This document shows, piece after piece, positions 6,314 through 52,974 of a stretch of DNA of 64,000 nt. Origin of the DNA: Spirochaetia bacterium (lineage in GTDB: Bacteria > Spirochaetota > Spirochaetia > SZUA-6 > Bin103). The position numbers were made by a program, and so were the translations under genes. Numbering within the stretch: the stretch's first letter is position 1; the number at the start of each line of letters is the position of its first letter. Location of the stretch: positions 2,784,001 to 2,848,000 of the forward strand of contig OZ241863.1 in NCBI GenBank assembly GCA_965203055.1, in the 5' to 3' direction. A model generated the notes under the pieces. That model saw nothing but the letters and a program-made list of their open reading frames with translations, ran no database searches and was not told the origin of the DNA.

Positions 6314-6377
6314 CCCGCCGCGCGAGGCTGGATGGCTGGAAGGAGTTGCTCAACCAAGTGAGCGAGAAGCGAGGTGG

Positions 6378-6779: not shown

Positions 6780-7627
6780 CAAGCGTCGCGACCTTCTCGG
6801 ATGATGCGCATGAACTCGTCGACATCGAACGGCTCGCTCGTCCTGACCACCTTCTCAGGGTCGAAGACCTTTGGGTCAGGGGCGTTCAACAGCTCGTCGA
6901 GATCATATGGCTGCAGCGACGATCTGGTCCCTTTGAGCTGCCCGACGTGAAAGTCTACCAAGCTGCCATCCGCGGCGAAGGTGCCGCGACCTCTAACCTC
7001 GACATACTGAGTCGCGTGACGCTGCATATCCTTATCCAGTGCGGCATCGAATCGGAGCCGAACCACGGGTTGGCCGTAGTTGTGCAGATGGGCAGTCCTT
7101 CGCTTCCAGTCGACCATCATCAGACGTCCCTGCAAGGTTGCATCGATTTCCTCGGCCGTACTCGGCTCATGGACTTGGCTCATTCTGGTCAGGGTCAACG
7201 AGCTTTCCGTGCCGGGGGAGCTGAGCCGTACTAAATATATTTCCTCCGACAATTCATTCCGCACGGCATTCAGCTCCTTGACGACTCCTTGAGGCAACGA
7301 CGGGTCTTGATCGCCTTTCCACCTCAGAAGGCGGTTCACGGCCCGAGGGCCGTAGTTCCATAGGTCGGGTTGCGCACCAACCGGAGGGGACAGTTCCAGC
7401 ACTGCGACAAGGGAACCCGGAGCCGTGCGCACCAGCCGCAGGGCGCTCTGGTCTCGCGCGAGCTTCGGCGGTCGGCCTCGGCGGGAAGGATCGGCGCCCA
7501 TCAGATGGACCACCATGAGTCGTACCGCCCGCTGCATATGCTCCAAGGTCTTAAGGAGATCCTTGACCGGCAGCCCGGCTTCGCTGACGCGTGGCCCCTT
7601 GAACGCGACATGTAGCTGGTTCTTCAG
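6779..7627 (-). CDS. Hypothetical protein, probable partner/antitoxin of the PIN toxin
   Basis: Frame stays open upstream of the ORF-track start (7546) to a CTG at 7627 preceded by GAGGAGG. Coupled to the PIN gene. Lower GC than its flanks. Confidence 0.6.
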   Translation of the reverse strand: MKNQLHVAFKGPRVSEAGLPVKDLLKTLEHMQRAVRLMVVHLMGADPSRRGRPPKLARDQSALRLVRTAPGSLVAVLELSPPVGAQPDLWNYGPRAVNRLLRWKGDQDPSLPQGVVKELNAVRNELSEEIYLVRLSSPGTESSLTLTRMSQVHEPSTAEEIDATLQGRLMMVDWKRRTAHLHNYGQPVVRLRFDAALDKDMQRHATQYVEVRGRGTFAADGSLVDFHVGQLKGTRSSLQPYDLDELLNAPDPKVFDPEKVVRTSEPFDVDEFMRIIREGRDA

Positions 7628-7778
7628 GGGAACCTCCTCGGTGGATAGGAGTGGACTTTGAGATTGGTCCCGATTCTATGGCCACCCAACGGTCAGCCTC
7701 CAGACGCTGGCCGCAGCATAGCACGCCGCGCACGGCTCGACAGACCACGCTCCGCGTGGGGCGCATCGGCGATCTTGA

Positions 7779-27407: not shown

Positions 27408-28751
27408 ATGCCTGATGCCGATCCCGACCTGCGCCACGAGATAGCGCTGTTCCGCTACGGCCTGATCTTCGAAGTGGCCCAACTGCCGCTCGGCTCTCCC
27501 GGCATCGGCGCGCAGTTGCGCGCCAAGGCCGAGCAGAACCACTCCATCCCCGGCTCGCACCGTACCCGCGTGGCCGCAGAGACCCTGCGCGATTGGCTGC
27601 ACCGCTATCGCCTTGGCGGCTTCGATGCCCTGTACCCCAAGCCGCGCGCCGACCGCGGCCTGCCGCGGCGGCTGCCGCCCGAAGCCGCCGAGTTGCTGCT
27701 GGCGATCAAGACCGAGCATCCCGCCTGGTCAGTGCGCCAGGTCATCAAGCACGCCACCGCCAGCGGCCAGCTCCCCGCCGGCGTGCGGCTCGCGCGCTCC
27801 ACCGTGCACCGCCTGCTGCACGCCGAGGGGCTGATGCACCCGCCCGGCGCCGCCGCAGACGCCGCCGACCGCCGCCGCTTCAGCTTCCGCTACGCCGGCC
27901 AGTTGTGGATGAGCGACGTCATGCACGGCCCCTCCGTCGCCGACGGACGCCGCCGCCGCAAGAGCTACCTCATCGCCTTTCTCGACGACGCCACCCGCCT
28001 GTGTCCCTTCGCCGCCTTCGCCCATGGCGAGAACACCGCCTCCTTCCTGCCGGTGTTCAAGCAGGCGCTGATCCGCCGCGGCCTGCCGCAACGCCTGTAC
28101 GTCGACAACGGCGCCAACTATCGCTCCCAACAACTGGCCCTGGTCTGCGCCAAGCTCGGCATCGCCCTGCTCCACGCACGCCCCTATCAGCCGCAGGGCA
28201 AAGGCAAGATCGAACGCTTCTTCCGCACCCTGCGCGCCCAGTTGCTTGCCTCCCTCGCTCCGCCCGACACCGCCACTCTCGAGACTCTCAACCGCCGCCT
28301 GTGGGCCTACCTTGAAGGCGAATACCACCACTCCCCCCATCGCGGCCTGGACGGCAACACCCCCCTCGAACAGTGGGCGCTGAGCGCCGCTGAGGTCCGC
28401 TACCCCGAAACCGCCCTCGACCTGGATGATCTGTTCCTGTTCGAGGCCAAGCGCCGCGTCATGAACGACCGCACCGTCAGCCTCCATGGCCGCGTCTACG
28501 AAGTCGATCCGCTGCTGGTCGGCCGCACCGTCACCTTGCGCTACGATCCCGCCGCGCCGCCCAGCCGACCGCTGCAGGTGCTCCACGCCGGCGCCGCCGC
28601 CGGGCACGCCACCATCCTCAACGCCTACGCCAACGCCTTCGTCAAGCGCGCCCGCCCCTCCCGCCACCTCGAACCCGACGCTCCCGCGCCCCGGCCGCCG
28701 CCCTCGCCGCTGGCCCTGCGCCACCTCCACCGCAACCAGGAGAACGACTGA
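27408..28751 (+). CDS. DDE integrase/transposase with HTH and Mu-transposase-like C-terminus
   Basis: LWMSDVMHG, AFLDDATR, LYVDNG, GKGKIERFFRT and YHHSPH. Confidence 0.9.
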   Translation: MPDADPDLRHEIALFRYGLIFEVAQLPLGSPGIGAQLRAKAEQNHSIPGSHRTRVAAETLRDWLHRYRLGGFDALYPKPRADRGLPRRLPPEAAELLLAIKTEHPAWSVRQVIKHATASGQLPAGVRLARSTVHRLLHAEGLMHPPGAAADAADRRRFSFRYAGQLWMSDVMHGPSVADGRRRRKSYLIAFLDDATRLCPFAAFAHGENTASFLPVFKQALIRRGLPQRLYVDNGANYRSQQLALVCAKLGIALLHARPYQPQGKGKIERFFRTLRAQLLASLAPPDTATLETLNRRLWAYLEGEYHHSPHRGLDGNTPLEQWALSAAEVRYPETALDLDDLFLFEAKRRVMNDRTVSLHGRVYEVDPLLVGRTVTLRYDPAAPPSRPLQVLHAGAAAGHATILNAYANAFVKRARPSRHLEPDAPAPRPPPSPLALRHLHRNQEND

Positions 28752-29551
28752 TGTATCTGCGCCATTTCGCCTTCACCCGCTGGCCCTTCGCCGCCAACCT
28801 TGAATCCGACCAACTGTTCGCTTCCGCCTCCCGCCAGGAAGCCGAGGCCCGCCTGCAGCATCTGCTCCACCTCCGCGGCATCGGCCTGCTCACCGGCGAG
28901 GTCGGCTGCGGCAAGACCACCGTCTGCCGCGCCGTGACCGCCTCCCTCCATCCCGGCCTGTTCCGCGTCCTCTACGTCTCGCTCACCACCGGCAACGTCA
29001 TGGACATGTACAAGTCGATCGCCTGGGAACTCGGCTTGCCGGCCGAACGCTCCCGCGCCACTGCCTACCGCGCCATCCGCTCCGAGATCACCCGCCAAGT
29101 CCAGGAAGCCCGGCTCCTGCCGGTGCTCGTCGTCGACGAGGCGCAGTTCCTGCGCACCGAGGTGCTCACCGATCTGCGCCTGTTGACCAACTACACCATG
29201 GACTCCGAACACCGCCTGTGCCTGCTGCTGGTCGGCCTCACCGAGTTGCGCCGCCGACTCTCGATGGCGGTCCACGAATCGCTCAGCCAGCGCCTGGTCG
29301 TGCGCCATCATCTCGGCGGCCTGCAACGCCCCGAACTCGATGCCTACCTCGCCCACCGCCTGCGCTTGGCCGGCTGCGAACTGCCGCTGTTCGAGGCGCC
29401 CGCCGCAGAGGCCTTGTTCCACGCCTCCCGCGGGCTGCCGCGGCAGATCAACCGCATCGCCCATTACGCCCTGTCGGCCACCGCCCTCGCCAACTCCCAC
29501 CGCGTCACCGCCGAGCACCTGCAGCACGCCCTCGACGAACTGCGCCCCTGA
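28751..29551 (+). CDS. ExeA/TnsC-like AAA ATPase (transposition helper)
   Basis: Walker A GEVGCGKT, Walker B VVDEAQ, SRGLPRQIN. Coupled to the transposase (TGATG). Confidence 0.9.
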   Translation: MYLRHFAFTRWPFAANLESDQLFASASRQEAEARLQHLLHLRGIGLLTGEVGCGKTTVCRAVTASLHPGLFRVLYVSLTTGNVMDMYKSIAWELGLPAERSRATAYRAIRSEITRQVQEARLLPVLVVDEAQFLRTEVLTDLRLLTNYTMDSEHRLCLLLVGLTELRRRLSMAVHESLSQRLVVRHHLGGLQRPELDAYLAHRLRLAGCELPLFEAPAAEALFHASRGLPRQINRIAHYALSATALANSHRVTAEHLQHALDELRP

Positions 29552-32097: not shown

Positions 32098-32706
32098 TCA
32101 GGCTTCGATGCGGGTGAACGCTTCCAGAATCGGCGGCGTTCGCCTTGGGTCGAGCCATTCGCGCATGACGAAGAATCCCGGCACCGCGCGCGAATCGATC
32201 TCCTCCTCTCCGGCGGCGTACTCGATCAGCAGCTCGCCGGCGCGACGGTAGAAGCGATGGGCGAGCGTCTCCGGATCCAGAATCCAGTATTCGATCACAC
32301 CGTGCCGCTCGTACGCGGCGAACTTCGGGCCGGTGTCACGGTCGGCGGTGCGCGGGCTCAGCACCTCCACCACCAGATCGGGCGCGCCCTCGACGTGGTT
32401 GCGGCGGATGGCGCTCCGGCGCTCGGCGCGATAGAACGCCAAGTCGGGCTGAAAGGTATTCCTGGCGCTCAGGCGTACGGCGACCACTTCCCGGTACAGG
32501 AACCCGAGCCGGCGGCGATCCACGTACAGCCGCAGAATGCCGTCCAGGAAGTTCAGCAGGTCGGCATGCCGAACCGAAACCGGCGAATGCATGGCTACCT
32601 CTCCGCCGATCAGATCGGCGCAGCGGCCCGGCTCCAACCACTCCAGGAAGTCCTCGGCGGTGAGCAGTTCGCGTTCAACAGCGGCGGGGCGCAGCTTCGT
32701 CGGCAC
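32098..32706 (-). CDS. Uma2-family endonuclease
   Basis: FQPDLAF, GAPDLVVEVLSP and YERHGVIEYWILDP. Start at GTG 32706 or ATG 32718. Confidence 0.9.
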   Translation of the reverse strand: MPTKLRPAAVERELLTAEDFLEWLEPGRCADLIGGEVAMHSPVSVRHADLLNFLDGILRLYVDRRRLGFLYREVVAVRLSARNTFQPDLAFYRAERRSAIRRNHVEGAPDLVVEVLSPRTADRDTGPKFAAYERHGVIEYWILDPETLAHRFYRRAGELLIEYAAGEEEIDSRAVPGFFVMREWLDPRRTPPILEAFTRIEA

Positions 32707-32838
32707 AGTGGCAAGCATACCACGGCGCCGCAGAGCGGCCAACCACCACCAACTGCGGCGACGTCGGCGAGTTGGCGTTTCGGAACTGGCAAATGATCAT
32801 ACGTGTGCGCGCTACGATTTGACCGCCCGCGCGCCGGG

Positions 32839-33459
32839 TTACTCTTGGACGCGCTCGATCACTGCCAGCGATTCGGTGAGCGGCGGAAGACGCCCCGGGT
32901 CGAGCCACTCGCGCATGATGAAGAATCCCGGCACCGCGCGCGACTCGATCTTCGCCGCTCCGGCGGCGTACTCGACCAGCAGCTCGCCGTCTCGGCGATA
33001 GAAGCGGTGGGCCAGGGTCTCCGGATCCAGAATCCAGTACTCGATGGCGCCATGCTGCTCGTATTCGGCGAACTTCGGGCCGATGTCGCGGTCGGCGGTG
33101 CGTGGGCTCAGCACTTCGACCACCAGATCGGGCGCGCCTTCGACGTGGTTATCGCGGATCAGGCCCGAGTGCGCCGCCCGATAGAACGCCAAGTCAGGCT
33201 GAAAGACATTCCTGGCGCTCAGCCGCACGGCCACCTCTTCCCGGAACAACTCGCCAAGCCGATGCCGGTCCACGTAGGTGCCGAGAAGGCGGTCGAGGAA
33301 GTTGAGCAGTCGGGCATGGCGGATCGACACCGGTGAATGCATGAATATCTCTCCGTCGATCAGGTCGGCGCCGCGGCCCGGCTCCAGCCACTCCAGGAAA
33401 TCCTCCGCGGTGAGCAGCTCGCGTTCCAGATCGAAGGCAGCGGAAACCCGGGTCGGCAT
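32839..33459 (-). CDS. Uma2-family endonuclease (tandem paralog)
   Basis: Same motifs, highly similar to 32098..32706. Confidence 0.9.
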   Translation of the reverse strand: MPTRVSAAFDLERELLTAEDFLEWLEPGRGADLIDGEIFMHSPVSIRHARLLNFLDRLLGTYVDRHRLGELFREEVAVRLSARNVFQPDLAFYRAAHSGLIRDNHVEGAPDLVVEVLSPRTADRDIGPKFAEYEQHGAIEYWILDPETLAHRFYRRDGELLVEYAAGAAKIESRAVPGFFIMREWLDPGRLPPLTESLAVIERVQE

Positions 33460-34756: not shown

Positions 34757-36034
34757 GTGAACGCCTCCGGGCCGCGCGACGACGCCTATCGAGCGGCCAT
34801 TCGCCGCAACGCGGGCTGGAACTTCTGGGTCAACGTCGGCGACCTGGCGTTCGTCAACCTGGCCGGCAGCTTCGTATTCATCTCCACGATCCTGCCGCTC
34901 TACGTCAGCTATCTGACCGAGTCGCGGGTCCTGATCGGGCTCATTCCGGCCATCTACGTCGTGGCCTCCCACGTGCCGCAACTGCTGCTGGCGGCGCGCG
35001 CCGAGTCGCTGGCCCGGAAGAAGCCGTGGATCGTGCGGGTCAGCGTGTTCGAGCGCGTCCCGTGGCTGATCCTCGGGCTCGGAATCCTGCTGTGGCCGGC
35101 GGCGCCGGGGTGGTTCTCCTACGCCTTTCTGGTCGCCATGCTGCTGTTTTCGCAGGCCGCGGTCGGCGTTGCCAGTCCGGCCTGGCGCGCCATGCTGGCC
35201 AACATCATCCACCCCGACCGCAAGGGGCTGATGTTCGGGCTGGGCAGCGCCTTCGGCGGGCTGATGGGCGCCGGCGGCGCCCTGTTGGCGCGCCACCTCC
35301 TGGAGCAGGTGGCGTTTCCCCTCTCGTTCGGGTTCTGCTTCCTGCTGGCCTTCGCCGGGCAGGCGATCTCCTGGACCTTCCTGACGTTGAATCGCGAGCC
35401 GCCGCGCCGCCCCGACCGCCCGCGGGTGCGGCTCGGCGCCTACCTGCGCGAGCTGCCCGCGGTACTGCGCCGCGACGCCAACTTCGCGCGCTTCCTGCTC
35501 AGCCAGCTCCTGGTGATCTTCGGCTCCCTGGGGGTCACCTTCTACATTGTGTACGGGCGCGCGGCGTTCGCCATCACCGACGCCTTCGCCGGCTCGCTCA
35601 CCGTGGCGGCATTGATCAGCCAGGCGCTCGGCACCCCGCTGCTGGGCTGGTGGGGCGACCGCTTCGGCCATCGCTCGGCCACCGAGGTGAGCGCGCTGCT
35701 GTGCGCCGCCGCCGGCCTGGTGATGGTGCTGGCTCCCGGCGCCGGCTGGATGTACGCCGCGTTCGCCCTGGTCACCGTAGCCGACTCCGGCACCAAGGTG
35801 GCGCGGCCGAGCCTGGCGATGGACCTGGGCGCCGGCGGCCGGGTCCCGACCTACGTGGCGCTGACCACCACGCTGCTCGCCGCCCCCGCCCTGGCCGCCC
35901 CCATCGCCGGCGGCTGGTTGATCGAGCTGGTGGACTTTCGCCCGGTGTTCGCGGCCGGCGTGGTGCTGGCGCTGCTCGGCTGGCTGCTGCTGCGCTTCGG
36001 CGTGGCCGACCCGCGCGTGGCCGGCCGGCGCTGA
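34757..36034 (+). CDS. MFS transporter
   Basis: About 12 hydrophobic segments, GWWGDRFGHR motif. Confidence 0.85.
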   Translation: MNASGPRDDAYRAAIRRNAGWNFWVNVGDLAFVNLAGSFVFISTILPLYVSYLTESRVLIGLIPAIYVVASHVPQLLLAARAESLARKKPWIVRVSVFERVPWLILGLGILLWPAAPGWFSYAFLVAMLLFSQAAVGVASPAWRAMLANIIHPDRKGLMFGLGSAFGGLMGAGGALLARHLLEQVAFPLSFGFCFLLAFAGQAISWTFLTLNREPPRRPDRPRVRLGAYLRELPAVLRRDANFARFLLSQLLVIFGSLGVTFYIVYGRAAFAITDAFAGSLTVAALISQALGTPLLGWWGDRFGHRSATEVSALLCAAAGLVMVLAPGAGWMYAAFALVTVADSGTKVARPSLAMDLGAGGRVPTYVALTTTLLAAPALAAPIAGGWLIELVDFRPVFAAGVVLALLGWLLLRFGVADPRVAGRR

Positions 36035-36225
36035 CCCGGCGGCAGCGGCGCCCGAGCGCGCGCGGTGGCGCCGGCGGGCGTCATGGGCGTTGCGGGCCGG
36101 TCTTCCCGCCGGCATACTGCGTTCCATACGGTCACGGTCTGCGGCGGCTGCCGCGCCGGGCAGACGCGCCGCCCCCGCCCCGCGCACGGCGCTGCCGGCG
36201 GGCGGCAGCGAAAGGAGAAGACGTC

Positions 36226-37818
36226 GTGCACCACTCTGTCGAGCTCGCGGCAGCCGGAGTCGCCGGCGCCGCAGCGCAGACCGGCGCCGCAACGGCCGCC
36301 TCAGCCCCGGTGCTGCTGCTGGACGAGGCGCTGATCGGGGAGCAGCGCGGCATCCGCCGCGAGGTGCAGGTGGGGCGCAAGAGCCCGGTGCTGGTGGCGC
36401 CGGAGCGCGACAAGCCGTGGGAGTACTGCGGCGCCGGCATGAGCAAGCGCATCCACCTGTACGGGACCGTGCTGTACGACGATCTGATCGGCAAGTACCG
36501 CATGTGGTACATGGGCCGCATGGGCCCCCACTGGCGCTTCCCGGCCGGCAACTACCAGATTCCGGGCCTGTACGTCCCGCGCACCGACGACCGCCCCTTC
36601 CATTGCAACGGCGTCACCCACGACCGGCACGGCCGCGCCTTGCAAAACAACGACCGCGGCGACCTGACCCTCTATGCCGAGAGCGACGACGGCCTGACCT
36701 GGGTCAAGCCCAACCTCGGCATCTTCACCTTCAACGGCAGCCCCGACAACAACATCGTGTGGGACCTGCACGGCGCCTCGGTGTTCATCGACCGCACCGA
36801 GCCGGACGCGGCGCGGCGCTACCAGGCGATCGGCTACTGCCGCCGCTACCGCGGCATCTTCCTGCTCACCTCGCCTGACGGCCTGCGCTGGGACGACAGC
36901 CGGCACCTGGAGCCGGTGGCGAAGCGCGCCAACGAGGGCGCCTTCAACGTCACCTGGGACCCCCGCGCTCAGGTGTACCGCGCCTACTCCATCGAGCGCT
37001 CCGGCGACCGCGAGGACCGCCGCGTCATCTGCTACACCGAGAGTCCGGCGTTGGCGGGGCCGTGGCAGGACTCGCGGCCGGTACTGGAACCGACGAGCTG
37101 GGACGATGCGGTTGCCTGGCGCCGCTACGGCGCGCTGCGCGCCGAATACTACGATCTGTCCGCGTTCCGCTACCACAACGTCCATCTCGGCCTGGTGGGG
37201 GCGCTGTACGTGCGCGCGGAGAAGATCCCCAACGAGCGGAATCAGATGCCGTGCGACGGGCCGATCGACGCGCAGTTGGTGTACAGCCGCGACGGGCTGA
37301 ACTGGACCCACGCCGACCGCGCGCGCACGCCGGTGATCCCGCGCGGCACCGGCGCTGCCTTCGACCGCGGCATGATCATCGGCACTGCCAGGGAGCCGCT
37401 GGTGGAGGGTGACGCGATTCACTGGTACTACACCGGCTGCGAACACGGCCACGGCGAAACCAACCTCGAAAAGCGCGTCAAGTATCTGGCGCGGGCCACG
37501 TGGCAGCGCGACCGCTTCATTGCGCTGCATGCCCCCGACACCGGACTGGTCACCACCAAGGCGGTGCCGCTGCCGCCGGGCGCGCGGGCGCTGACGGTAA
37601 ACGCCGACGCCGCCGGCGGACAGGTGATGGTGGAGCTGTGCAAGCCCGACGGCGCCCCGCTGCCGGGGTTCACGCGCGCGCAATGCGTGCCGTTGCGCGG
37701 CGACAAGCTGGATTGGCGGGTGGCCTGGAACGGGGCCGACCGCGCGGCGTTGCCCGGCGCCGTGCGGCTGCGCTTCCTCCTGACCCGCGCCCGGCTCTAC
37801 AGCTACCGCTGGAGCTGA
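36226..37818 (+). CDS. Glycoside-hydrolase-like five-bladed beta-propeller protein
   Basis: YAESDDGLTWVKPNLG, TSPDGLRW and SRDGLNW Asp-box-like motifs, LTVNADA tail. AAGGAG before GTG at 36226. Confidence 0.65.
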   Translation: MHHSVELAAAGVAGAAAQTGAATAASAPVLLLDEALIGEQRGIRREVQVGRKSPVLVAPERDKPWEYCGAGMSKRIHLYGTVLYDDLIGKYRMWYMGRMGPHWRFPAGNYQIPGLYVPRTDDRPFHCNGVTHDRHGRALQNNDRGDLTLYAESDDGLTWVKPNLGIFTFNGSPDNNIVWDLHGASVFIDRTEPDAARRYQAIGYCRRYRGIFLLTSPDGLRWDDSRHLEPVAKRANEGAFNVTWDPRAQVYRAYSIERSGDREDRRVICYTESPALAGPWQDSRPVLEPTSWDDAVAWRRYGALRAEYYDLSAFRYHNVHLGLVGALYVRAEKIPNERNQMPCDGPIDAQLVYSRDGLNWTHADRARTPVIPRGTGAAFDRGMIIGTAREPLVEGDAIHWYYTGCEHGHGETNLEKRVKYLARATWQRDRFIALHAPDTGLVTTKAVPLPPGARALTVNADAAGGQVMVELCKPDGAPLPGFTRAQCVPLRGDKLDWRVAWNGADRAALPGAVRLRFLLTRARLYSYRWS

Positions 37819-37824
37819 CCGGCG

Positions 37825-40800
37825 TTAGCCGGACTGCCGCGCCAGCTTCTTGCGCACCCGTTCGATGTCGCGCCGGCGCCCGCGCCGCTGCCAGATGGCC
37901 AGCGCCTCTTCGAGGCGCCCCTGGCGTTCGTAGACGCGCGCCACGCCCACCTCGTCGCCGAGCTTCCGGTAGCAGCGCAACGCGTCGGCATAGTGCTTGC
38001 TGTCGCGGTACTGCCGCGCCGCCAACTCCAGGTCGCCCTTCTGCTCACGGATCCTGCCGGCCCACTTGTGGTCGCGATGCCCCATGCACGTCACGATTGC
38101 GCGATCCTCATCGCCACGCGCGAGGAACATCTTCACCGCTTCGGGATAGCGCCGCGCGCTTCTGCCGAACAGGGTTGCGTTGCGCTCGTCCGGCTCCATG
38201 TCCGCCAGCGCCGCCTCGTACGCCGGCTCGTCCTCCAGCAACGTGCAGAGCATCAATTCCGGGTCTTGTTCCTCGGCTGCGATCCGCTGCAACCGGATCT
38301 CGAAGTACTCGTAGGCCTGGTCGGGCTGCGGCCCGACCCGGTCGAGGTAGCCGAGAATCAACTCGTAGCAGCGCAGATCGACGATCAGGTCGCTCAACTC
38401 GACGAACAGCGGACAGCCGTAGACGAAGGCCGACGGCAGCGAGTCGAGCATCGCGGCGACCCGCTCGCGGCGGTCCGGCGCCGCGCCGCGGTACACGCAG
38501 TCATGCATCAGCCGCAACACCGCGCCCTTGACGCTGCTGTTGACCTGGAAGTCCGCCAGCCGCGGGCGGCGGCCGCGGCCGCGCGCCATCCGCTCCACCT
38601 CGGGCACCGAGAGGACCAGTTCGGGGCGCTTGTCCAGATAGGCCGCCGCCTCGGCGCCGCGCCCGTGATCCAGGCAGTACTCCAGGGCGTCGGCGTGGCG
38701 CTCCAGCATGGAGTAGGCCGCGGTGGCGCCCTCCATGTACATACCGGCCTCCGAACCGACGGCCAGATAGTGGGCCAGCGCCAGCGTCGGTTCGCCGGCG
38801 CGCAGCAGGCGGCCGGCCGCGCGGGTCACTTCATGGCCTCGGTCGTACAGTCCGTAATGGCCCTCCTTCAGGTAGCAGCCGACGTATTCGACCGCCTCCC
38901 GGTGGCTCTCGTCGCGGCCGTCGCGCAGCACCTCGCGGGCCGCTTCCTGGTAGCGCCCGCACTTCGCCAGGCACTCCGCCGCGGAGTGGTGATCGCCGGC
39001 GGCGCTGAACAGCTCGGCGGCGCGCTCCGGTTGCCCGTTGCGAAGGTAGATCGGGGCGGCCCGCGCCGGCTGGCCCAGGGCCGCCATGCGGACCGCGGCG
39101 CGCATGCCGGGACGCTTGGGGGTAATCTTCGCCAGTCTCTGCTCCAGGTCCCGGCGCGCCTGCGGCGAGCTCTCCGCGTAGCGGCGGAAGCAGTCGCCGG
39201 CCCGCTCCAGGTCGCCGCGTTTCTCATATACCAGCCCCGCATCGTGATGGGCGCCGGACTCGAGCAGACAGCGCAGCAGCGCGTCGCTGTCGCCGATGCG
39301 CCGGTAGAGCGCCGCCGCCCGGACGTGGTCGCCGGCCTGCTCAAACTCCTCGGCCGCGAACGACAGCAGCCCGGCGCGGCGGAACTGCGCCGCGGCCTGG
39401 GCGTGATCGCCGGCCAGCTTGAGGAAGCGCGCCGCCTCGCCGGCCGCCTTCCGTTCCAGGTGGAACTGCGCCAGCTTGCGGTACTCGCGGCCCTGTTCCC
39501 AGTTGCGCAGCACGCCCTCCTCCACCCCCAGTTGCTGCCAGCGGAGCGCCGCCTGAACGTGGTTGCCGGTCGCTTCGTAGTGCCGGGCCTCGCAGGAGAC
39601 CGCTCGCATCTCGCTCTTGGCGCGCCGCCAGGCGCGCGCCGCCTGGCGAAACGCGCCGGCCTGCTCCAGGTTGTCCGCAGCCTCGGTGGCGCGCCCGTGG
39701 CGGGAAAACAACCCGGCGGCGGCGTGATGCTCCCCCTCCCGCTCCAGGCGGCGGGCGCGCGCCAGATCCTCCTTGACCACCGCCTGGGCGTGGCGGTAGC
39801 ACTCTTCGGCCGCCGCGTAGTGCTCCCGCTCGGCGAAGTAATCGCCCTGCGCCTCCCACTCCGCCGGCGTGGACACGCGCTGCCACAGCGTGTCGAAGGC
39901 CGCCGCGTCGGTGGATCGGTACACCTGCTCGGCCAGCGCGTCGATGGTCCAGATCGGGCTCACCCGCTCCCCGTCCCAGATCACCAGCGTGTTGCGCGCC
40001 CGCGTCACCGCCACGTACAGCAGGTTCAACTCATGGCGGACGTGCGGCCCGTCGGCGTCCTCCTGCGCCCGCTCCTCGGCGATGCGCCTCCAGATCGCCG
40101 GCGAACCCTCCGCCGCCGAGAAGCGCCACAGCAGCACCGCGTCGAACTCCAGCCCCTTGGCCTCGTTGATGGTGAACACCAACTCGGTTTGCAGCGCCTT
40201 GCGCACCCGGTCGCGCTCCTGCGCGGTGCGCACCAGCACCACCTGACCAGCCCCGCCGCCCGCGATCGTGCCCAGCAGGTCGCCCTCCGCCAGCCCGTCC
40301 AGCAGCAGCGGCGGGCGCCCGCGGAAGGTCCAGCGCTCGGTGATTTCCCCGCCGGCCAGCCCCACCAGTCTCCGCTTCAGCAGCAGCAGCCCGTTGGCCA
40401 GGCTGACGATGTTGCCGACGCTGCGGAAGTTGATGCTCAGGTTGATCACCTCCGGCACCGGCAGGCCGCGCTCGTAGTAGCGCGCGCGCACCTCCTCCCA
40501 GCGGAAGCCGCTCGGATTGATGATCTGCTTGGGATCGCCGGTCAGTACGGTGCGGCGCGGGTCGGCGGCGAGCCGGAACAGCAGGGCGAGCTGCACGTCG
40601 GTGAGGTCCTGCACCTCGTCGCACACCACCAGGTCGTAGCGGAACTGGTCGCCGTGCTGTTCCAGGTAGTGCAGGGCGGCGCGGGTCAGGTCGATCTCGT
40701 CGTAGCGCCCGGCCGCGGTGAGGCGCGTCTGGTAGTACTCGGCGAGGCGGTGGATGTCGCCCCGGTCGAACGGGAAGTTGGGCGCCCGCTTGCGCCCCAG

Positions 40801-42153
40801 CCCCTCATACTCGCGCAGCGTGAGCAGCGGCTGGTCGAGGCGCCCGGCCTGCTTCTCCAGCAGGCGCAGCGCGGCCCCGAGCAGGAACCGGTGATCGTCA
40901 CCGCGCGCGGCCTCGCCGTCGCGCAGGCTGGCGGCGAACTCCTGCAGCGAGGCGAAGGAACTCTTGCGCTCGCGCGCCGCGTCGAGCTTGGCGCCCAACT
41001 CCAGGTTGCCGAGCCGCACCACGTACTCGGCCAGCTCGGCGCGTTCGCGCTGCGCCGCCTGCGCGGAGGTGAAGGAGGCGGCCAGCTCCTTGAACCGGCG
41101 CCCGCTCACCGGCGGCTTGGCGCCCTTGATGATGGAGCGGATCTCTTCCCACACCAGCTCGGCGTCGTAGCGGGCGGCGCCGGGATGACTCCGGAAGATG
41201 GCATGAAACTCGGCCAGCCCGGCCGGCGGCGCCTCCCAGCGCGGCTTCCCGGCGCAGGACATGATCTCGCGCAGCAGCTCCCCGAAGGTCGCGAAGCGCA
41301 CCGCCTGCGGCGCGCGCTCCAGCTCGGTGGCCTTCACCAGCCCGCGGTAGATGCGTTCGGAAAAGCGCTTCAGATGGGGACTGCAGGTGAGGAACAGCGC
41401 CCGTTCGGAGCCGGCCGCGGCGTTGTCCGGCAGCGCGGCCGCGGCGGCGCCGTCCGGCCGCGCGGCGAGCTGGCGCGCCCGGCGGCGCAGCAGAAAGTAG
41501 ACCGCGATGGTGGTCTTGCCGCTGCCGGCGGTGCCGGACAGCAGCAGCGGCGGCTCGCTGTGCAGCAACCGCGCCTGCTCGCGGGTCAGGTACAGGTACA
41601 GCTCCAGGTGGTCGCCCTGGTCGGTCGCCTGCAGGCGGCGCCACTCGCCCTCGTCCACCACCAGCCAGCGCTGCGGGCCGGCGTCGGCGGCGGCGCCGTC
41701 GCCGGCCGCGGCGGGCGCCGCGCGCAGGGGCTGGTCCAGCGCCGGCGACAAGTAGTCGTCGCTCAGGTCGTCGAGGTCCAGCTCCTCGTCCCGTTGCTCC
41801 ACGGCGTCCGGCGCGAATTCGAGGAACGGGGCGTTGCCGGGCACGATCCCCTGCGCGGTATCGGTCACCGCGTCGTGCTTGACCACCCCCCACACGTAGA
41901 TGCGGGTGGCCCCCGCGCCCTCCTCCCGGAGCGGACGCCCCAACGTGAACAGGATGCGGTCGCCGCGGCTGAGCCGCGCCTCGAATACCGCGCGCGCGGC
42001 GCCCTTGAGCTTCTTGACCCGCACGCCGCCGTCCCACAGGCCGTGCTGCAGGTACTCCAGCTTCTCACGCAGGCGTTGCCTGCCCTGCCGCCCCAGCGAC
42101 ACGAGGTGCGCCCGCACCTTGTCGTGCAGGAGGAGTGTATAGCTGCGCGCCAT
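37825..42153 (-). CDS. RelE-like domain + UvrD-like SF1 helicase + TPR-like repeats (TRANK1-like)
   Basis: GTAGSGKTT, DEVQD, TGDPKQ, NFRS, EAKGLEFD and LYVAVTRAR. About 650 aa of helical A..Y/F..AG repeats at the C-terminus. Confidence 0.85.
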   Translation of the reverse strand: MARSYTLLLHDKVRAHLVSLGRQGRQRLREKLEYLQHGLWDGGVRVKKLKGAARAVFEARLSRGDRILFTLGRPLREEGAGATRIYVWGVVKHDAVTDTAQGIVPGNAPFLEFAPDAVEQRDEELDLDDLSDDYLSPALDQPLRAAPAAAGDGAAADAGPQRWLVVDEGEWRRLQATDQGDHLELYLYLTREQARLLHSEPPLLLSGTAGSGKTTIAVYFLLRRRARQLAARPDGAAAAALPDNAAAGSERALFLTCSPHLKRFSERIYRGLVKATELERAPQAVRFATFGELLREIMSCAGKPRWEAPPAGLAEFHAIFRSHPGAARYDAELVWEEIRSIIKGAKPPVSGRRFKELAASFTSAQAAQRERAELAEYVVRLGNLELGAKLDAARERKSSFASLQEFAASLRDGEAARGDDHRFLLGAALRLLEKQAGRLDQPLLTLREYEGLGRKRAPNFPFDRGDIHRLAEYYQTRLTAAGRYDEIDLTRAALHYLEQHGDQFRYDLVVCDEVQDLTDVQLALLFRLAADPRRTVLTGDPKQIINPSGFRWEEVRARYYERGLPVPEVINLSINFRSVGNIVSLANGLLLLKRRLVGLAGGEITERWTFRGRPPLLLDGLAEGDLLGTIAGGGAGQVVLVRTAQERDRVRKALQTELVFTINEAKGLEFDAVLLWRFSAAEGSPAIWRRIAEERAQEDADGPHVRHELNLLYVAVTRARNTLVIWDGERVSPIWTIDALAEQVYRSTDAAAFDTLWQRVSTPAEWEAQGDYFAEREHYAAAEECYRHAQAVVKEDLARARRLEREGEHHAAAGLFSRHGRATEAADNLEQAGAFRQAARAWRRAKSEMRAVSCEARHYEATGNHVQAALRWQQLGVEEGVLRNWEQGREYRKLAQFHLERKAAGEAARFLKLAGDHAQAAAQFRRAGLLSFAAEEFEQAGDHVRAAALYRRIGDSDALLRCLLESGAHHDAGLVYEKRGDLERAGDCFRRYAESSPQARRDLEQRLAKITPKRPGMRAAVRMAALGQPARAAPIYLRNGQPERAAELFSAAGDHHSAAECLAKCGRYQEAAREVLRDGRDESHREAVEYVGCYLKEGHYGLYDRGHEVTRAAGRLLRAGEPTLALAHYLAVGSEAGMYMEGATAAYSMLERHADALEYCLDHGRGAEAAAYLDKRPELVLSVPEVERMARGRGRRPRLADFQVNSSVKGAVLRLMHDCVYRGAAPDRRERVAAMLDSLPSAFVYGCPLFVELSDLIVDLRCYELILGYLDRVGPQPDQAYEYFEIRLQRIAAEEQDPELMLCTLLEDEPAYEAALADMEPDERNATLFGRSARRYPEAVKMFLARGDEDRAIVTCMGHRDHKWAGRIREQKGDLELAARQYRDSKHYADALRCYRKLGDEVGVARVYERQGRLEEALAIWQRRGRRRDIERVRKKLARQSG

Positions 42154-42225
42154 TGGTCGGCGTAGTCTACCGCCGCCGCCGGCCCGGCCACAACCGCCCG
42201 GCGGGAGGAGGGATCGGCGCCGCGG

Positions 42226-43647
42226 TCAGCGTTCGCGGCCTGAGAGGAACAGGCCGTAGGAGTTGCTCTGCCAGGAGTTTTCCTCCGCCAGCCCGTCCCT
42301 GGTGGCGCGCATGCGCGCCACCAGGCGCTCCTGCAGGCGGCGCAGGACGTGCTCGAAGGCGACCATCCCGGCGAGGTTGTGCAGCTCGCCGGGGTCCGAC
42401 CGCAGATCGTACAGCTCGTCGCGGGTGGCCGGATTGTAGACGTACTTCCAATCCGCGGTGCGGATCATCCGGGCGCTGTACAGCGTGGTTTCGTAGCCGT
42501 GGAACTCCGCGAACACGTCGTCCGGCCAGCCCTCCGGCGCCGCGCCCTCCAGCAGCGGCGTCAGCGAACGCCCGTCGGCGCTCTCCGGCGGCGCCGCCGC
42601 GGCCAGCTCGGCCAGCGTCGGGGCCAGGTCGACCAGGTTGGCGAACGCCGCCGCGGTTGCGCCCCGGCGGACGCCGGGGCCGGCGATCAGCAGCGGTACG
42701 CGGTGCGTCTCCTCGTACATGTGAAAGCCCTTGTTGAACAGCCGGTGGTTGCCGAGCATGTCGCCGTGATCGGCGGTGACCACCACCACGGTGTCACGCG
42801 CGCGTCCGCACCGGCGCAGCGCGGCGAGCACCCGGCCCATCTGGTGATCGACGAAGCTGCAGTATCCCCAGTAGGCGGCGATCACCCGCTGCCAGTCCGG
42901 CCAGGTCAGATGGGCGGCGTTCCAGCGCCGCAGCTCCTTCTGCTGGATGAGCGGCTTGGCGGTGAATCGTTCGGCGTAGTTCGCCGGGCAGGGCACCTGA
43001 CCGGGGTCGTACATCGTGTCGTACGGCTCCGGCACGGCGTAGGGAAAGTGGGGTCCGAAGAAGGACGCGGCCACCAGGAAGGGGGAGTCGCCGGCGCTGA
43101 AGGCGTCGATCATCTCGATTGCGCGGTCCGCGGTCCACGCTTCCTGCATCTTGTCCGCGGGGAGGGTGGCGCGTCCGGCAAACGGCGCCGCCGCCCCCCA
43201 CTCGAGGCGCTGCACCTCGGCGCGCGCGAAGTCGTAGCCCGGCACCGTGCGCAGCCACTCGGCGCGGGGATGCCAGCGGTCGACGTGCCAGAGGGCGGCG
43301 TCGCCCTCCCGCGGCAGGTGCCACTTGCCGGTGTAGCCGATCCGGTAGCCGGCCGCGCTGAGGCCGGAGAACAGCGTCGGCTGACCGATCAGTTGGCGGT
43401 CGAACACCCCGTTGAAGTTCCCCATGTTGGAGAGCTGCAGGTGATTGTGAGGATAGCGGCCGGTGAACAGGGAGGCGCGCGCGGGAGTGCACAGGGCAAT
43501 CGGCGTGTAGGCGTTGGCGAAGCGCACGCCGGCGGCGGCGACTGCGTCCATCGCCGGCGTGCGGCAGAACTGCGCCCCGTTGCAGCCGAGCGCGTCGTAG
43601 CGGAGCTGGTCGGCCAGCAGGAGCAGCAGGTTCGGCGGGCGCGTCAT
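42226..43647 (-). CDS. Sulfatase
   Basis: PNLLLLLADQ, CTPARASLFTGRY, GKWH and TADHG. Confidence 0.9.
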   Translation of the reverse strand: MTRPPNLLLLLADQLRYDALGCNGAQFCRTPAMDAVAAAGVRFANAYTPIALCTPARASLFTGRYPHNHLQLSNMGNFNGVFDRQLIGQPTLFSGLSAAGYRIGYTGKWHLPREGDAALWHVDRWHPRAEWLRTVPGYDFARAEVQRLEWGAAAPFAGRATLPADKMQEAWTADRAIEMIDAFSAGDSPFLVAASFFGPHFPYAVPEPYDTMYDPGQVPCPANYAERFTAKPLIQQKELRRWNAAHLTWPDWQRVIAAYWGYCSFVDHQMGRVLAALRRCGRARDTVVVVTADHGDMLGNHRLFNKGFHMYEETHRVPLLIAGPGVRRGATAAAFANLVDLAPTLAELAAAAPPESADGRSLTPLLEGAAPEGWPDDVFAEFHGYETTLYSARMIRTADWKYVYNPATRDELYDLRSDPGELHNLAGMVAFEHVLRRLQERLVARMRATRDGLAEENSWQSNSYGLFLSGRER

Positions 43648-43717
43648 ATTCTCGTTCTTCTTCGATGAAGAGTGCCGCGCCGCGCGGCGCGGCACTCCCC
43701 GCTCCGACACGCGGCGT

Positions 43718-51542: not shown

Positions 51543-52868
51543 TCACCGGTCTACCGGCGCCTGACGATCTTCGCCGGGGCGCCCGAATTCGGCGCCGGCG
51601 TGGCGGTAGCGGTGATGGGCGGCGCACAGCAGGCGGAGATTGTTCGGCTCGGCGGCGCCGCCGTAGGCATACGGCACGACGTGATCGATCTGCAGCAGGT
51701 GTTGCGAGCCGCAACGGCGCCCGCTGGTGCGGTCCACGTAGCGGCAGCGGCCGCGGCGCGGTCGCGCCGCCACACCTCGCGCTTGACCGCCGCCGGATGG
51801 CGCGGCCGGGCACGCCCGTCTTCGCTGCCGAAGTCCGGGGCCGCGGCGCGGCAGCCGGCTTCCGCACGCCGTCGCAGCCTGCCGGCCCAGGCGCCGCGTC
51901 TTCGGCGCCGAAGTGGTGTCGGTCGCCGGCTTCGCTGCCGAAGTGTCCGAGCGGTCAGCGGCTTCGTCTCCCGGCTCCGCCGGCGCCTGAGCCGATACCT
52001 TCGCCGCCGAAGGAGCGGCGCTGTCTGCGCCGCGAGCCGAAGCCGCCTGCGTCTTCGCCGCCGAAGTTTGCTCGGCGCCTTTGGCCGAAGCGGGGCGCCG
52101 CCCACGCGGCGGCCGGGCCGGGTCGTGGCGGTCGAGCCCTTCCCGCACCAGCCGTCCCATGAGCTGCCCCATCGTCATTTGCGGATCGACGTGGGACAGG
52201 AGGCCCTTGAGCCGCTCCAAGCCCCGCCGGCACTCATCGTCGATCACCGCCTTGAGTTCCCAGCGCCCGCCGCCGAGGGGCCGCACCCGATCCGCCGCCG
52301 CCGCCAGCTCCGGGTCCACCTCGGCCAGCAACTGCATCACCTCCCGGCTGCTCTTGCCGGCCGCCTGCTCCACCAGCTCCCGCCGCGCCTCCGGGTCCAG
52401 CACCGGCGCCGGCTTCCGCTCCGCCGGCCGCGGCGGCGCCGAGCCGTTCTGCGACTGAGCGGCAGCCCCGAACCCGGTCCCGCCCGGCGCGCTACGCGCC
52501 GAGCGTTCCTTCTTGCGCTCGTGCCGGTCGAAGGCGTTCTGCAACTGCGCGGCTGCGTTCAGCGTCATCGTGCCATTCCGCAGGCGCTCGCGCACGCCAT
52601 CGACGTCCGCGCAGAGCCGCATCGCCTTGATGCGCCGCCACGCCGCGGCGTCGCTGTAACCCAGTTCGCGCACCGCATAATCGAACAGGCTCGAGAACCC
52701 GCGGCGCAGATACAGGCGGCGCTTCTGAATCTCCCGCAGGTGGTCGATGACGACCACTTCGAGATGGTGTTCGATGCGGGAAAGTTCCTTGGTCCGCTCC
52801 AGCAAACGGTCGTCTGAGAGGGCGGAAACGGTAGTCGTGACGGCCCCGTCGGAAGCATGATTGTTCAT
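51543..52868 (-). CDS. HNH endonuclease, copy 2 (compensating frameshifts at ~51760-51865)
   Basis: Highly similar to 7779..9122. AAVKREVWRRD is read in another frame. Confidence 0.8.
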   Translation of the reverse strand: MNNHASDGAVTTTVSALSDDRLLERTKELSRIEHHLEVVVIDHLREIQKRRLYLRRGFSSLFDYAVRELGYSDAAAWRRIKAMRLCADVDGVRERLRNGTMTLNAAAQLQNAFDRHERKKERSARSAPGGTGFGAAAQSQNGSAPPRPAERKPAPVLDPEARRELVEQAAGKSSREVMQLLAEVDPELAAAADRVRPLGGGRWELKAVIDDECRRGLERLKGLLSHVDPQMTMGQLMGRLVREGLDRHDPARPPRGRRPASAKGAEQTSAAKTQAASARGADSAAPSAAKVSAQAPAEPGDEAADRSDTSAAKPATDTTSAPKTRRLGRQAATACGSRLPRRGPGLRQRRRACPAAPSGGGQARGVAARPRRGRCRYVDRTSGRRCGSQHLLQIDHVVPYAYGGAAEPNNLRLLCAAHHRYRHAGAEFGRPGEDRQAPVDR

Positions 52869-52974
52869 GACATAAGTATAATCATGGAAACCATTTGAGT
52901 CAAGCTCTTCGGCCCGGAAGATGCCACCTGAGGGCGTGACGCGGCGGCGCATTTCCAAGCGGCTGGACGTTCCG

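Follow-up and report, generated by a model that had tools for sequence, protein, structure and literature searches.

Proteins combining a RelE-like domain with a helicase—ArmD and CnuH—have already been published. A further related case is Cami1, whose sensor is a CARF domain binding cyclic tetra-adenylate, the protein possessing neither a helicase nor a repeat tail. This CARF-RelE ribosome-dependent RNase of the type III CRISPR systems (PDB 8phb, 8phj) has its RelE-fold effector fused to the gating sensor in one chain. In ArmD of ARMADA type II, according to the preprint (bioRxiv 10.1101/2025.09.15.676423), a RelE-like domain precedes a UvrD-family helicase, the Walker A residue is required for phage defence, and the protein acts as a member of a cluster of four genes, the others coding for two further helicases and a methyltransferase. 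In CnuH of the type II/III-A CoCoNuT systems (eLife 2024, PMC11090510), an SF1 helicase is fused to a RelE/colicin D-like "RNase toxin-like" domain, which was recognized from its structure instead of its sequence and may, in the view of the authors, be an active nuclease; they bring also the Upf1-like family into the comparison. The free-standing RelE/ParE-superfamily toxins are ~85–115 residues long and paired with an antitoxin gene.

On the eukaryotic side, TRANK1-like proteins occur in animals and other eukaryotes. Vertebrate TRANK1 is a poorly understood virus- and interferon-induced gene and a psychiatric risk locus. It belongs to the three genes induced in chicken ileum 12 h after influenza infection (PMC8517014). 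A literature search revealed no paper tying TRANK1 to RelE-helicase fusions or to bacteria.

The window analysed, i.e. the whole stretch of 64,000 nucleotides from a Spirochaetia bacterium, contains a gene for a protein designated here P0001 (Table 1), which, with a probability of about 0.9, is a stand-alone single-chain three-module enzyme—consisting of a RelE/ParE-fold domain, an SF1 UvrD-type ATPase/helicase and a helical repeat tail of ~680 residues—related to the core of TRANK1. The gene, starting with ATG in the ORF list of the window, is present in one copy in the 4.56-Mb genome. Since four UvrD-family Pfam models exceed their curated cut-offs and 385 homologues were found at E ≤ 1e-3, of which many extend over the full length with 38–98% identity, the ORF can be regarded as a genuine gene, an artefact of high GC content being excluded; the ORF of 1390 residues on the opposite strand (37993..42165, +) is its shadow frame. 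All the motifs quoted in the preliminary description were located within this one ORF, i.e. VKKLKG (residues 46–51), VFEARLSRGDRILF (56–69), IYVWGVVKHD (85–94), GTAGSGKTT (207–215), LVWEEIRSIIKG (333–344), CDEVQD (511–516), TINEAKGLEFDAVLL (661–675), ELNLLYVAVTRAR (708–720) and STPAEWEAQGDYF (761–773).

Table 1 Features of the P0001 gene, with positions counted in the window
Feature	Position	Strand	Basis
Whole gene, protein P0001, ORF of 1442 residues with stop codon	37825..42153	-	ORF list, translation, homologues
RelE/ParE-fold domain, residues 1–113	41815..42153	-	AF2 model, Foldseek, wide fold search, conserved columns
Linker varying in length, acidic and rich in Ala/Pro, residues 114–160	41674..41814	-	Weakly conserved gapped columns; pLDDT < 50 from residue 114
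SF1 UvrD-type helicase core, residues 161–760	39874..41673	-	Pfam, family alignment
Helical repeat array, residues 761–1442	37828..39873	-	Profile self-comparison, self-similarity lags

The N-terminal domain, equal in fold and size to the RelE/ParE-superfamily toxins, is predicted by the AF2 model of residues 1–130 (pLDDT 74.9, pTM 0.70) to be built of a strand (6–9), two helices (11–19 and 22–36), four strands (46–48, 56–60, 65–72 and 84–92) and one more helix (93–106), which agrees with the arrangement of this superfamily (BECR fold), where an N-terminal strand and two helices precede an antiparallel sheet with three to four strands. It had previously been described as RelE-like, with a structural comparison against RelE being proposed, and the fold predicted agrees with that assignment: Foldseek run with the model gave the archaeal RelE 1wmi_A as the top match (E 1.9e-4), and the best 25 matches in a wide search of 48161 solved chains were RelE/ParE-superfamily toxins only (Z 10.6–5.9). 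The nearest chains come from the mRNA-cutting toxins HigB, YoeB, RelE and YafQ, but also from the RelE domain of Cami1 (8phb_A, Z 8.0 over 96 residues). Chains of the gyrase poison ParE, however, reach Z 9.0–6.8 and are statistically tied with the RNase toxins; the fold alone, therefore, does not indicate an RNase.

With regard to sequence profiles, none from Pfam or PDB connects the domain to the characterised RelE families. No Pfam toxin family matches P0001 at E ≤ 1, Gp49 matches just four of 45 N domains without significance (best E 0.018), and the PDB profile search with the N domain yielded no toxin at E ≤ 10, the best match (E 0.053) being an unrelated protein. As far as individual residues are concerned, E58, R66, W88, H93 and D94 are among those invariant across 45 N domains from many phyla, and in the AF2 model they sit on or beside the strands of the sheet; R60, which varies among 72 N domains, is not invariant. 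Such a set—Glu, Arg, His-Asp and Trp on the last strands of the sheet—is of the type present in the RelE/YoeB-type RNases, and E58, R66 and H93 may correspond to the catalytic residues of RelE or YoeB. Thirty-five shorter proteins containing the domain (45–100% identity to it) do not define a separate free-toxin family, many of them resembling fragments of the full-length genes.

The helicase core shares with UvrD, PcrA, Rep and GajB the SF1 motif set and the Pfam UvrD domains, all the four models scoring over their cut-offs (UvrD-helicase 3.5e-11, UvrD_C 5.8e-9, UvrD_C_2 2.9e-8 and AAA_19 5.2e-7). The full set of the UvrD motifs I–VI, already recognized previously, is intact, these being, under the names we take to apply from the SF1 consensus, Walker A and motif II (the GTAGSGKTT and CDEVQD given above), III GDPKQ (539–543), IV NFRS (575–578), V TINEAKGLEFD (661–671) and VI LLYVAVTRAR (711–720). 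These motifs, together with two family-specific blocks, LVWEEIRSIIKG and KRAPNF (455–460), are invariant in the alignment of 23 family members. P0001 differs from the named helicases in its flanking domains and in scoring far under the NCBIfam equivalogs (UvrD, PcrA, Rep, RecB, HelD), which holds for 11 of 11 matches, the highest one, pcrA, having 43.7 bits against the cut-off of 911.2. The Gabija identity was rejected, since the GajB profile matches P0001 only in part, e.g. residues 468–589 (E 2.3e-11), and no GajA-type partner was found among the 120 + 23 flanking ORFs scanned.

The tail, beginning with STPAEWEAQGDYF, consists of units of ~13 residues that follow the consensus G-x4-A-A-x2-[FYLW]. 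When the family profile was compared with itself, off-diagonal matches in the tail went down to E 1.7e-28, and the top self-similarity lags were 13, 26, 39 and 52, which are absent from the top lags of the helicase used as control; lag 13 leads over residues 781–1442 as a whole and multiples of 13 do so in the sub-regions. The tail had been taken for a TPR array, from which its helical and repetitive nature can be retained, but not the canonical TPR, because the period is 13/26 instead of 34 residues and all Pfam TPR models stay under their cut-offs on P0001 (TPR_2 with 17.4 bits vs 27), the TPR-, SNAP- and clathrin-like hints being sub-threshold only; "TPR-like helical repeat array" is, therefore, the better name.

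The resemblance to TRANK1, noticed previously along with a possible prokaryotic relationship, is real and specific, and goes beyond the generic UvrD motifs. All 14 matches obtained in the long-protein search with P0001 were TRANK1-like (E 8e-31 to 5.5e-19), and the similarity is collinear across the N domain, helicase and repeats. A TRANK1-like query returned from this genome the P0001 gene at E 4.7e-30, with the next helicase at 1.7e-3, so that the two are reciprocal-best matches. The N-domain HMM matched TRANK1 regions upstream of Walker A in 10 of the 14 (E 4.2e-7 to 4.4e-4), and hhalign of the bacterial and TRANK1 N domains gave a probability of 97.7% (E 1.5e-12). The corresponding region of a hemichordate TRANK1, modelled with animal sequences only, is likewise predicted to adopt the RelE fold (pLDDT 86.5), its best 23 matches being RelE/ParE toxins. 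In an alignment of 37 TRANK1-like sequences from animals, the corresponding positions are occupied by E, R, W and H with a conservation of at least 90%. In the post-helicase repeats, lag 13 was the top one in all four TRANK1-like proteins tested.

Both groups thus have in common the same order of modules: the RelE-fold domain, Walker A, the LVWEEI-type block, the KRAPNF block, motifs II–VI, the "STPAEW..QGDY" junction and the repeats with the 13-residue period. In the phylogeny, which had been suggested as a check, the prokaryotic family and the conserved eukaryotic TRANK1 core are sister clades. It should be pointed out that the identity in the helicase is just 28–33%, that the final two strands of the TRANK1 RelE-like domain are separated by an insert of ~27 residues not seen in the bacterial family, and that TRANK1 has Lys at the place of the bacterial R60. 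TRANK1 is also much longer—about 2700–3200 residues (2675–3201 in the search matches) vs 1442—its core being preceded by ankyrin repeats and, in part of the members, also by TPRs at the N terminus, and followed by ~1000 further residues. Because of the difference in length and since no ankyrin repeats were found in P0001 by Pfam, P0001 is related to the TRANK1 core but does not represent a TRANK1 orthologue.

Concerning the function, the reading favoured, at slightly short of even odds, is that of a RelE-like effector gated in cis by the helicase and the tail and shutting down translation, probably in defence against phages or mobile elements. The RelE-like domain would attach to the ribosomal A site and either cleave the mRNA under translation or at least keep the site blocked, via the invariant E58, R66, H93/D94 and W88. 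Its restraint in cis by the helicase and the repeat tail is proposed since no antitoxin gene is conserved along with the family. The release might be cued by a trigger bound by the tail, or by the motor engaging foreign or aberrant nucleic acid, whereupon ATP binding or hydrolysis would free the toxin domain; translation would then be shut off, most likely in the setting of defence against phages or other mobile elements. In favour of this mechanism are the toxin fold, the invariant polar and aromatic residues, the intact motor motifs, the lack of a partner gene, the accessory and mobile distribution and the induction of TRANK1 by influenza; the missing RelE profile link, the ParE tie in the fold search and the weak defence context count against it. 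An immune role is plausible. A rather doubtful extension would derive the P0001 family and TRANK1 from one ancient effector—a ribosome-dependent RelE-type RNase under the control of a UvrD-type motor and of a sensor made of helical repeats—with vertebrate TRANK1 cutting or blocking mRNA on ribosomes; if true, TRANK1 would be a further case of an immune module common to prokaryotes and animals.

The family is a rare, patchy and horizontally spread prokaryotic accessory gene. Within the bacterium's own taxonomic family, 21 of 23 genomes were found to contain it, compared with only nine of 37 belonging to other parts of the order and three of 250 other genomes of the phylum, these 250 being at least 90% complete; the genomes of the own genus contain from one to six matches, some being fragments with stop codons. 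The identity between phyla amounts to 38–44% over 99–100% of the length. Such high conservation, tail included, across distant phyla is more in line with a conserved partner in the cell than with a rapidly evolving sensor of phages, and it speaks, together with the near-constant presence in the own family, the metabolic and transport genes as direct neighbours in the window and the lack of a consistent defence island at 20 loci, for a cellular RNA/ribosome quality-control factor, in which the RelE fold would recognize or cleave the mRNA of stalled ribosomes, removal of the message would fall to the helicase, and a conserved partner of the host would provide the docking point for the tail. That alternative is unlikely, however, the scarcity in the phylum and the patchy occurrence in the order not being the pattern expected for a core factor of this kind; the paralogues and broken copies, the shorter members carried by two cyanobacterial plasmids and the phyla intermixed in the family tree also argue against it.

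A DNA-directed helicase, acting like UvrD and GajB-type helicases on plasmid, phage or damaged chromosomal DNA, is fairly improbable. Here the N domain would be no RNase but a ParE-like domain acting on DNA gyrase, or a non-catalytic nucleic-acid-binding or regulatory module, in agreement with the Z-scores of ParE, with the lack of a sequence-level tie to the RelE RNases and with the fact that the only named families matched (UvrD, PcrA, Rep, RecB, GajB) all act on DNA. On the other hand, the invariant residue set is of the RelE/YoeB type and, to our knowledge, absent from ParE, and an RNase toxin of the HigB type is the top single structural match for the bacterial and TRANK1 models alike.

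As for the gene neighbourhood, the P0001 gene has a sulfatase gene 72 bp upstream and, downstream, a convergent ORF that is unrelated, with genes for ABC and MFS transporters also being direct neighbours. The 2628 ORFs flanking the gene at 79 loci include no neighbour family recurring beyond close kin (maximum 12 of 79 loci), and no antitoxin gene is conserved in these loci or adjoins the P0001 gene in the window. PADLOC matches, mostly to generic domains, occurred within 4 kb at 10 of the 20 diverse loci, which were scored without a control set. From the earlier proposal of a single-gene RNase immunity protein, the single-gene part is supported by the lack of conserved neighbours, but neither immunity, the defence neighbours being inconsistent, nor an active RNase, with no RelE-family profile link, could be substantiated. 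It is very unlikely that P0001 belongs to a multi-gene system comparable in kind to ARMADA type II or Tiamat type I-K, the partners of which (SNF2 and YprA helicases, methyltransferase) would be located elsewhere or have been lost. ArmD, as described in the preprint text available, does have both N-terminal modules in common with P0001 and depends on three partner genes, the window contains a DrmMI-like methyltransferase as well as an HNH gene 9–13 kb from the P0001 gene, and an SNF2 helicase adjoins one of the 20 loci; but two transporter operons separate this methyltransferase from the gene, and ArmA (SNF2), ArmB (PglX-like methylase) and ArmC (YprA) neither adjoin it in the window nor are conserved in the 79 loci. 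The long repeat tail, too, sets the P0001 family apart from ArmD, for which that text mentions none, and CnuH (PMC11090510) differs by an SmpB-like domain and McrBC-type operons.

Finally, that P0001 would be an ordinary UvrD/Rep paralogue resembling TRANK1 by common helicase motifs only, as might be suggested by the exclusively generic UvrD-type matches in Pfam, NCBIfam and PADLOC, is extremely improbable and contradicted by the reciprocal-best match, the N-domain alignment and the common repeat period, those generic matches staying at ~43 bits (E 1e-11) and other UvrD-like helicases of this genome matching at E 7e-4 only, whereas with the family profile the TRANK1-like proteins are matched, in collinear segments that lie beyond the helicase motifs, at E 1e-71 to 9e-41.

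The product of the gene under study, P0001, consists of three modules, namely an N-terminal domain (residues 1–113), a helicase core and a repetitive tail, the first two being separated by a variable acidic linker (table below), and every motif quoted in the preliminary description of this DNA has been located in its translation. The G+C content of the DNA is approximately 72% at the gene, a composition at which long spurious frames are frequent, and the antisense frame listed in the table is a shadow of the kind typical of high-GC DNA, having no evidence of its own. Despite that shadow, the minus-strand frame can be taken, from its sequence, as the genuine gene, because four UvrD-family Pfam models exceed their curated cut-offs in P0001 and 385 of the 8000 candidates scored in a word-indexed search of 5.8 billion proteins proved to be homologues at E ≤ 1e-3. 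Among the 120 that were listed, many cover 99–100% of P0001, with identities of 38–98%. The 4.56-Mb, one-contig genome carries a single copy of the gene, the other UvrD-like helicases of the same genome matching P0001 only at E 7e-4.

Concerning the N-terminal domain, residues 1–130 were modelled with AlphaFold2 from 35 family sequences, the model (mean pLDDT 74.9, pTM 0.70) exhibiting the order strand, two helices, four strands, helix. The best Foldseek match in the PDB was an archaeal RelE (1wmi_A, E 1.9e-4), behind which ranked YoeB, RelE, YafQ, HigB2, ParE2 and Cami1—the CRISPR-linked CARF-RelE RNase. In an independent all-against-all structural comparison with 48161 representative chains, each of the 25 best rows was a RelE/ParE-superfamily toxin, led by the pneumococcal toxin 6af3_A (Z 10.6, rmsd 2.2 Å, 93 residues), with YoeB, archaeal RelE, YafQ and ParE at Z 9.6, 9.4, 9.1 and 9.0, respectively, and the first unrelated folds at Z 5.7. 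The RelE-like N-terminus proposed earlier is thus borne out as a predicted RelE/ParE fold. Eleven positions—L35, G38, W40, E58, R66, T70, W88, H93, D94, F110 and F113—show no variation across 45 N domains, which come from many phyla; judging by the strand periodicity of the model, E58, R66, W88 and K92/H93 would be found on the sheet's open face, and R66 and H93 presumably correspond to Arg65 and His83 of YoeB, or to Arg61 and Arg81 of RelE. Sequence profiles did not link the N domain to known toxin families: a profile of the 45 domains found nothing relevant among all PDB sequences (best E 0.053), and Pfam gave only faint Gp49 matches, in 4 of the 45. A distinct family of free toxins was not found either, the 35 shorter matches being 45–100% identical to the N domain and many of them resembling fragments.

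The helicase core (residues ~161–760) bears Walker A (GTAGSGKTT), DEVQD, GDPKQ, NFRS, AKGLEFD and VAVTRAR; neither these motifs nor the family-specific blocks ELVWEEIRSIIKGAKP and KRAPNF vary among the 23 members aligned. Since the NCBIfam equivalogs for PcrA, UvrD, Rep and RecB score at most ~43 bits against cut-offs of several hundred, P0001 is classified on its motifs as a UvrD-type helicase outside these named groups. Scans of the whole protein with Pfam, NCBIfam and PADLOC returned generic UvrD/GajB matches only, and in the ESM Atlas the whole protein matched UvrD-type clusters, the top score for the repeat tail being 0.82; both results are no more than leads. The tail (residues 761–1442) is internally repetitive, the family profile compared with itself giving off-diagonal matches down to E 1.7e-28. 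Its best self-similarity lags are 13, 26, 39 and 52 residues, all of them absent from the top lags of the P0001 helicase region, and its repeat unit reads G-x4-A-A-x2-aromatic. The TPR array of the preliminary description therefore stands as a predicted array of helical repeats but not as canonical TPR, given the 13-residue lags and the Pfam TPR, SNAP and clathrin matches, all of which remained below threshold.

Both this anatomy and the kinship with the core of TRANK1—a large animal protein with ankyrin repeats, whose resemblance to P0001 had been suggested from the motifs—are supported. With P0001 residues 150–800 as the query, and targets restricted to 2525–5000 aa in a database of 5.8 billion sequences, 14 matches were obtained (E 8e-31 to 5.5e-19, calculated for 5.8 billion sequences), 12 of them named TRANK1 and originating from a bird, mammals, frogs, a hemichordate and a scallop; the remaining two are one EukProt protein and one unnamed metagenome protein with ankyrin repeats. 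BLASTP gave one long alignment between P0001 444–950 and TRANK1 1368–1918 (E 5e-40), which spans the helicase and continues through 'STPAEW.AQGDY' into the repeats, the N domain, Walker A and LVWEEI block appearing as weaker pieces collinear with TRANK1. The family HMM matches all 14 TRANK1-like proteins in collinear pieces (E 1e-71 to 9e-41), its N-domain piece being seen at E 4.2e-7 to 4.4e-4 in ten, weaker than 0.01 in two and unreported in two. In the reciprocal direction, with the EukProt protein as the query against the whole genome, the P0001 gene came first (E 4.7e-30), ahead of the next helicase (E 1.7e-3). The unnamed metagenome protein (P0135, 3201 aa) has its helicase at the far C-terminal end (2650–3090), together with a weak PDZ match, and forms the deepest branch of the eukaryote-type clade.

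The kinship extends to the N-terminal domain. A 151-residue query from the N-like region of hemichordate TRANK1 found 282 representative clusters at E ≤ 1e-3 among 1.84 billion proteins; of ten looked up, five were named, all animal (four TRANK1-like and one unnamed mussel product), and five nameless. No Pfam model matches this region. Modelled from 37 of these TRANK1-like sequences, the bacterial family being left out (pLDDT 86.5, pTM 0.80), it has RelE/ParE toxins as all of its 23 best structural matches, headed by the same chain as for the bacterial domain, 6af3_A (Z 10.7), Foldseek being weaker (best E 7.7e-3). Aligned profile to profile, the TRANK1 and bacterial N domains match with 97.7% probability (E 1.5e-12, 96 columns). 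TRANK1 retains the Gly-x-Trp, the Glu of FEA(K/R)L, the Arg of RIL, the Trp and the His of the bacterial domain, from which it differs by an insert of ~27 residues ahead of the last strand. As regards the tail, a lag of 13 gives the highest self-similarity over the 250–350 residues immediately following the helicase in all four TRANK1-like proteins tested, and not in their helicase regions or farther downstream.

The evolutionary tree (55 rows, 661 columns, IQ-TREE quick search) comprised nine eukaryotic rows and 44 prokaryotic ones, the latter taken from the 79 proteins of the family, with the two other UvrD-like helicases of the P0001 genome as the outgroup; five near-identical mammalian rows and one truncated locus were excluded. 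The eukaryotic rows form one clade (SH-aLRT 98–99), sister to all the prokaryotic rows (90), although the root and the direction of transfer are not fixed because the outgroup branches are very long. The phyla are intermixed within the tree. The sole archaeal member, from Heimdallarchaeota (L075), was considered as a bridge to the eukaryotes and rejected, since it matches TRANK1 at E 1.6e-28 compared with ~1e-40 to 1e-45 for bacterial members and falls, on a long branch, among the prokaryotic rows. Its match (5281–8955) lies in an open frame of 1575 aa; the N domain is intact (E 3.7e-23) and the repeat tail expanded, with five matches each for several of the profile repeats.

The gene has an accessory distribution, being present in 21 of 23 genomes of its own family (genome G000 excluded), 9 of 37 from the rest of the order and 3 of 250 other genomes of the phylum that are at least 90% complete. 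The closest relatives come from high-GC Spirochaetia and the remoter full-length members from genomes labelled Marinimicrobia, Acidobacteriota, Ignavibacteriota, Calditrichota, Desulfobacterota and others; in the Verrucomicrobiota and Lentisphaerota forms the match covers only ~930–1080 query residues. Cultured carriers of homologues include Rectinema subterraneum and Acanthopleuribacter pedis. Phage genomes gave no family matches. Own-genus genomes have one to six matches each, including fragments with stop codons. At least two copies within ~10–30 kb are found at L001/L047, L005/L034 and G003:C5:2822681-2854422, those of G003 including pieces with in-frame stop codons, and such clusters in related genomes suggest that the gene has undergone duplication and decay locally. 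Shorter members are encoded on two cyanobacterial plasmids (1095 and 962 aa; N domain at E 1e-18 and 1e-16), with no annotation beyond 'UvrD-helicase domain-containing protein'. In the Euhalothece plasmid, the short family member is followed after 59 bp by a gene with the annotation 3'-5' exonuclease (L087:7970-9862, plus strand) and, ~5 kb downstream, by a second UvrD-type helicase gene.

There is no partner gene. Among 79 loci, no neighbour family is conserved beyond close kin, the maximum being 12 of 79 with variable position and strand. Upstream of the gene, and on its strand, lie a peptide ABC transporter and, 72 bp away, a sulfatase gene. The convergent ORF facing it, which is unannotated, has look-alikes of its C-terminal ~460 aa at the same place in four loci of close relatives (L001, L003, L010 and L011); Pfam found no matches at E ≤ 0.1 in the ORFs between 36034 and 37825. 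PADLOC matches at E ≤ 1e-10 occur in 14 of 120 flanking ORFs (within 4 kb, 20 diverse loci of the 79), control loci being unscored; most are generic domains, such as Ser/Thr kinase, cysteine desulfurase, sigma-54 activator, subtilase or transporter, the more specific ones being BrxC-like (L056), ZorD/DpdE-like SNF2 helicase (L058) and mad3/AriA-like ATPases (L013, L076).

In the mechanism proposed here, the RelE-fold domain would be the effector, acting on the ribosomal A site; there being no antitoxin, it would have to be restrained in cis, with the helicase and tail holding it in check and releasing it upon a signal. Precedents are Cami1, in which a sensor fused to the RelE domain gates it (structure titles; Tiamat preprint), and CnuH, the RelE-helicase of CoCoNuT systems (PMC11090510). 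Against it speak the missing sequence link to active RelE RNases and the structural tie of ParE with RNase toxins as matches to the N domain; the defence context is, moreover, weak, and the high conservation suggests a conserved cellular partner. The RNase activity and the immune role envisaged in the preliminary description stay hypothetical.

RelE-helicases as a kind are known, since such fusions are in print—ArmD of ARMADA type II (bioRxiv 10.1101/2025.09.15.676423) and CnuH—and the P0001 family adds a single-gene, repeat-tailed form to these recently described representatives of multi-gene defence systems. In the open-licence PubMed Central or bioRxiv literature, no single-gene RelE-helicase family with a 13-residue repeat tail, no bacterial TRANK1 relative and no RelE-fold domain in TRANK1 was found described; helicase, UvrD, TPR and TRANK are all absent from the main text of a survey on multidomain RelE/ParE toxins published in 2025. 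TRANK1 itself, a large and conserved protein, is a robust bipolar disorder risk gene according to abstracts and recurs in virus-induced gene lists (PMC8517014 among them); one paper could give for its function no more than two GO terms, protein binding and ATP binding. What makes the finding of high interest is mainly that TRANK1 gains a testable mechanism and a compact bacterial model: a core of RelE fold, UvrD-type helicase and helical repeat leads to the hypothesis of action on ribosomes or mRNA, and the 1442-aa bacterial form is a tractable model of that core.

Features of the P0001 gene, its product and the surrounding window
Feature	Position	Strand	Remark
P0001 gene	37825..42153	-	single ORF, 1442 aa, ATG start
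Antisense ORF	37993..42165	+	1390 aa
Acidic linker of P0001	residues 114-160		variable
Convergent ORF	36034-37818	+	ends 7 bp from P0001 stop codon; MFS gene beyond
Uma2-family putative endonuclease gene	32098-32742	-	tandem pair with next; Pfam E 8e-30
Uma2-family putative endonuclease gene	32839-33459	-	Pfam E 7e-32
Mu-type DDE transposase (rve, Mu-transpos_C), then AAA_22 ATPase	27408-29551	+	~8-10 kb from P0001 gene
HNH-motif ORF adjoining 611-aa ORF	51543-54810	-	9-13 kb upstream of P0001 gene
Sulfatase gene	42226-43710	-	
Sulfatase gene	57545-59041	-	

As for the rest of the window, PDC-S03, a candidate system in PADLOC, is matched by both Uma2 genes as well (E 1e-23 and 9e-26), and the transposase and AAA_22 ATPase look like a putative transposon or IS module. 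The 611-aa ORF matches the DISARM methylase model DrmMI (E 1.2e-86) and no Pfam family at E ≤ 1e-5, and may form a restriction-modification-like pair with the HNH-motif ORF. The window also contains PhyH dioxygenases and MFS and ABC transporters. Sulfatases recur near the P0001-type gene in related genomes, which seem to be sulfatase-rich, at varying positions.
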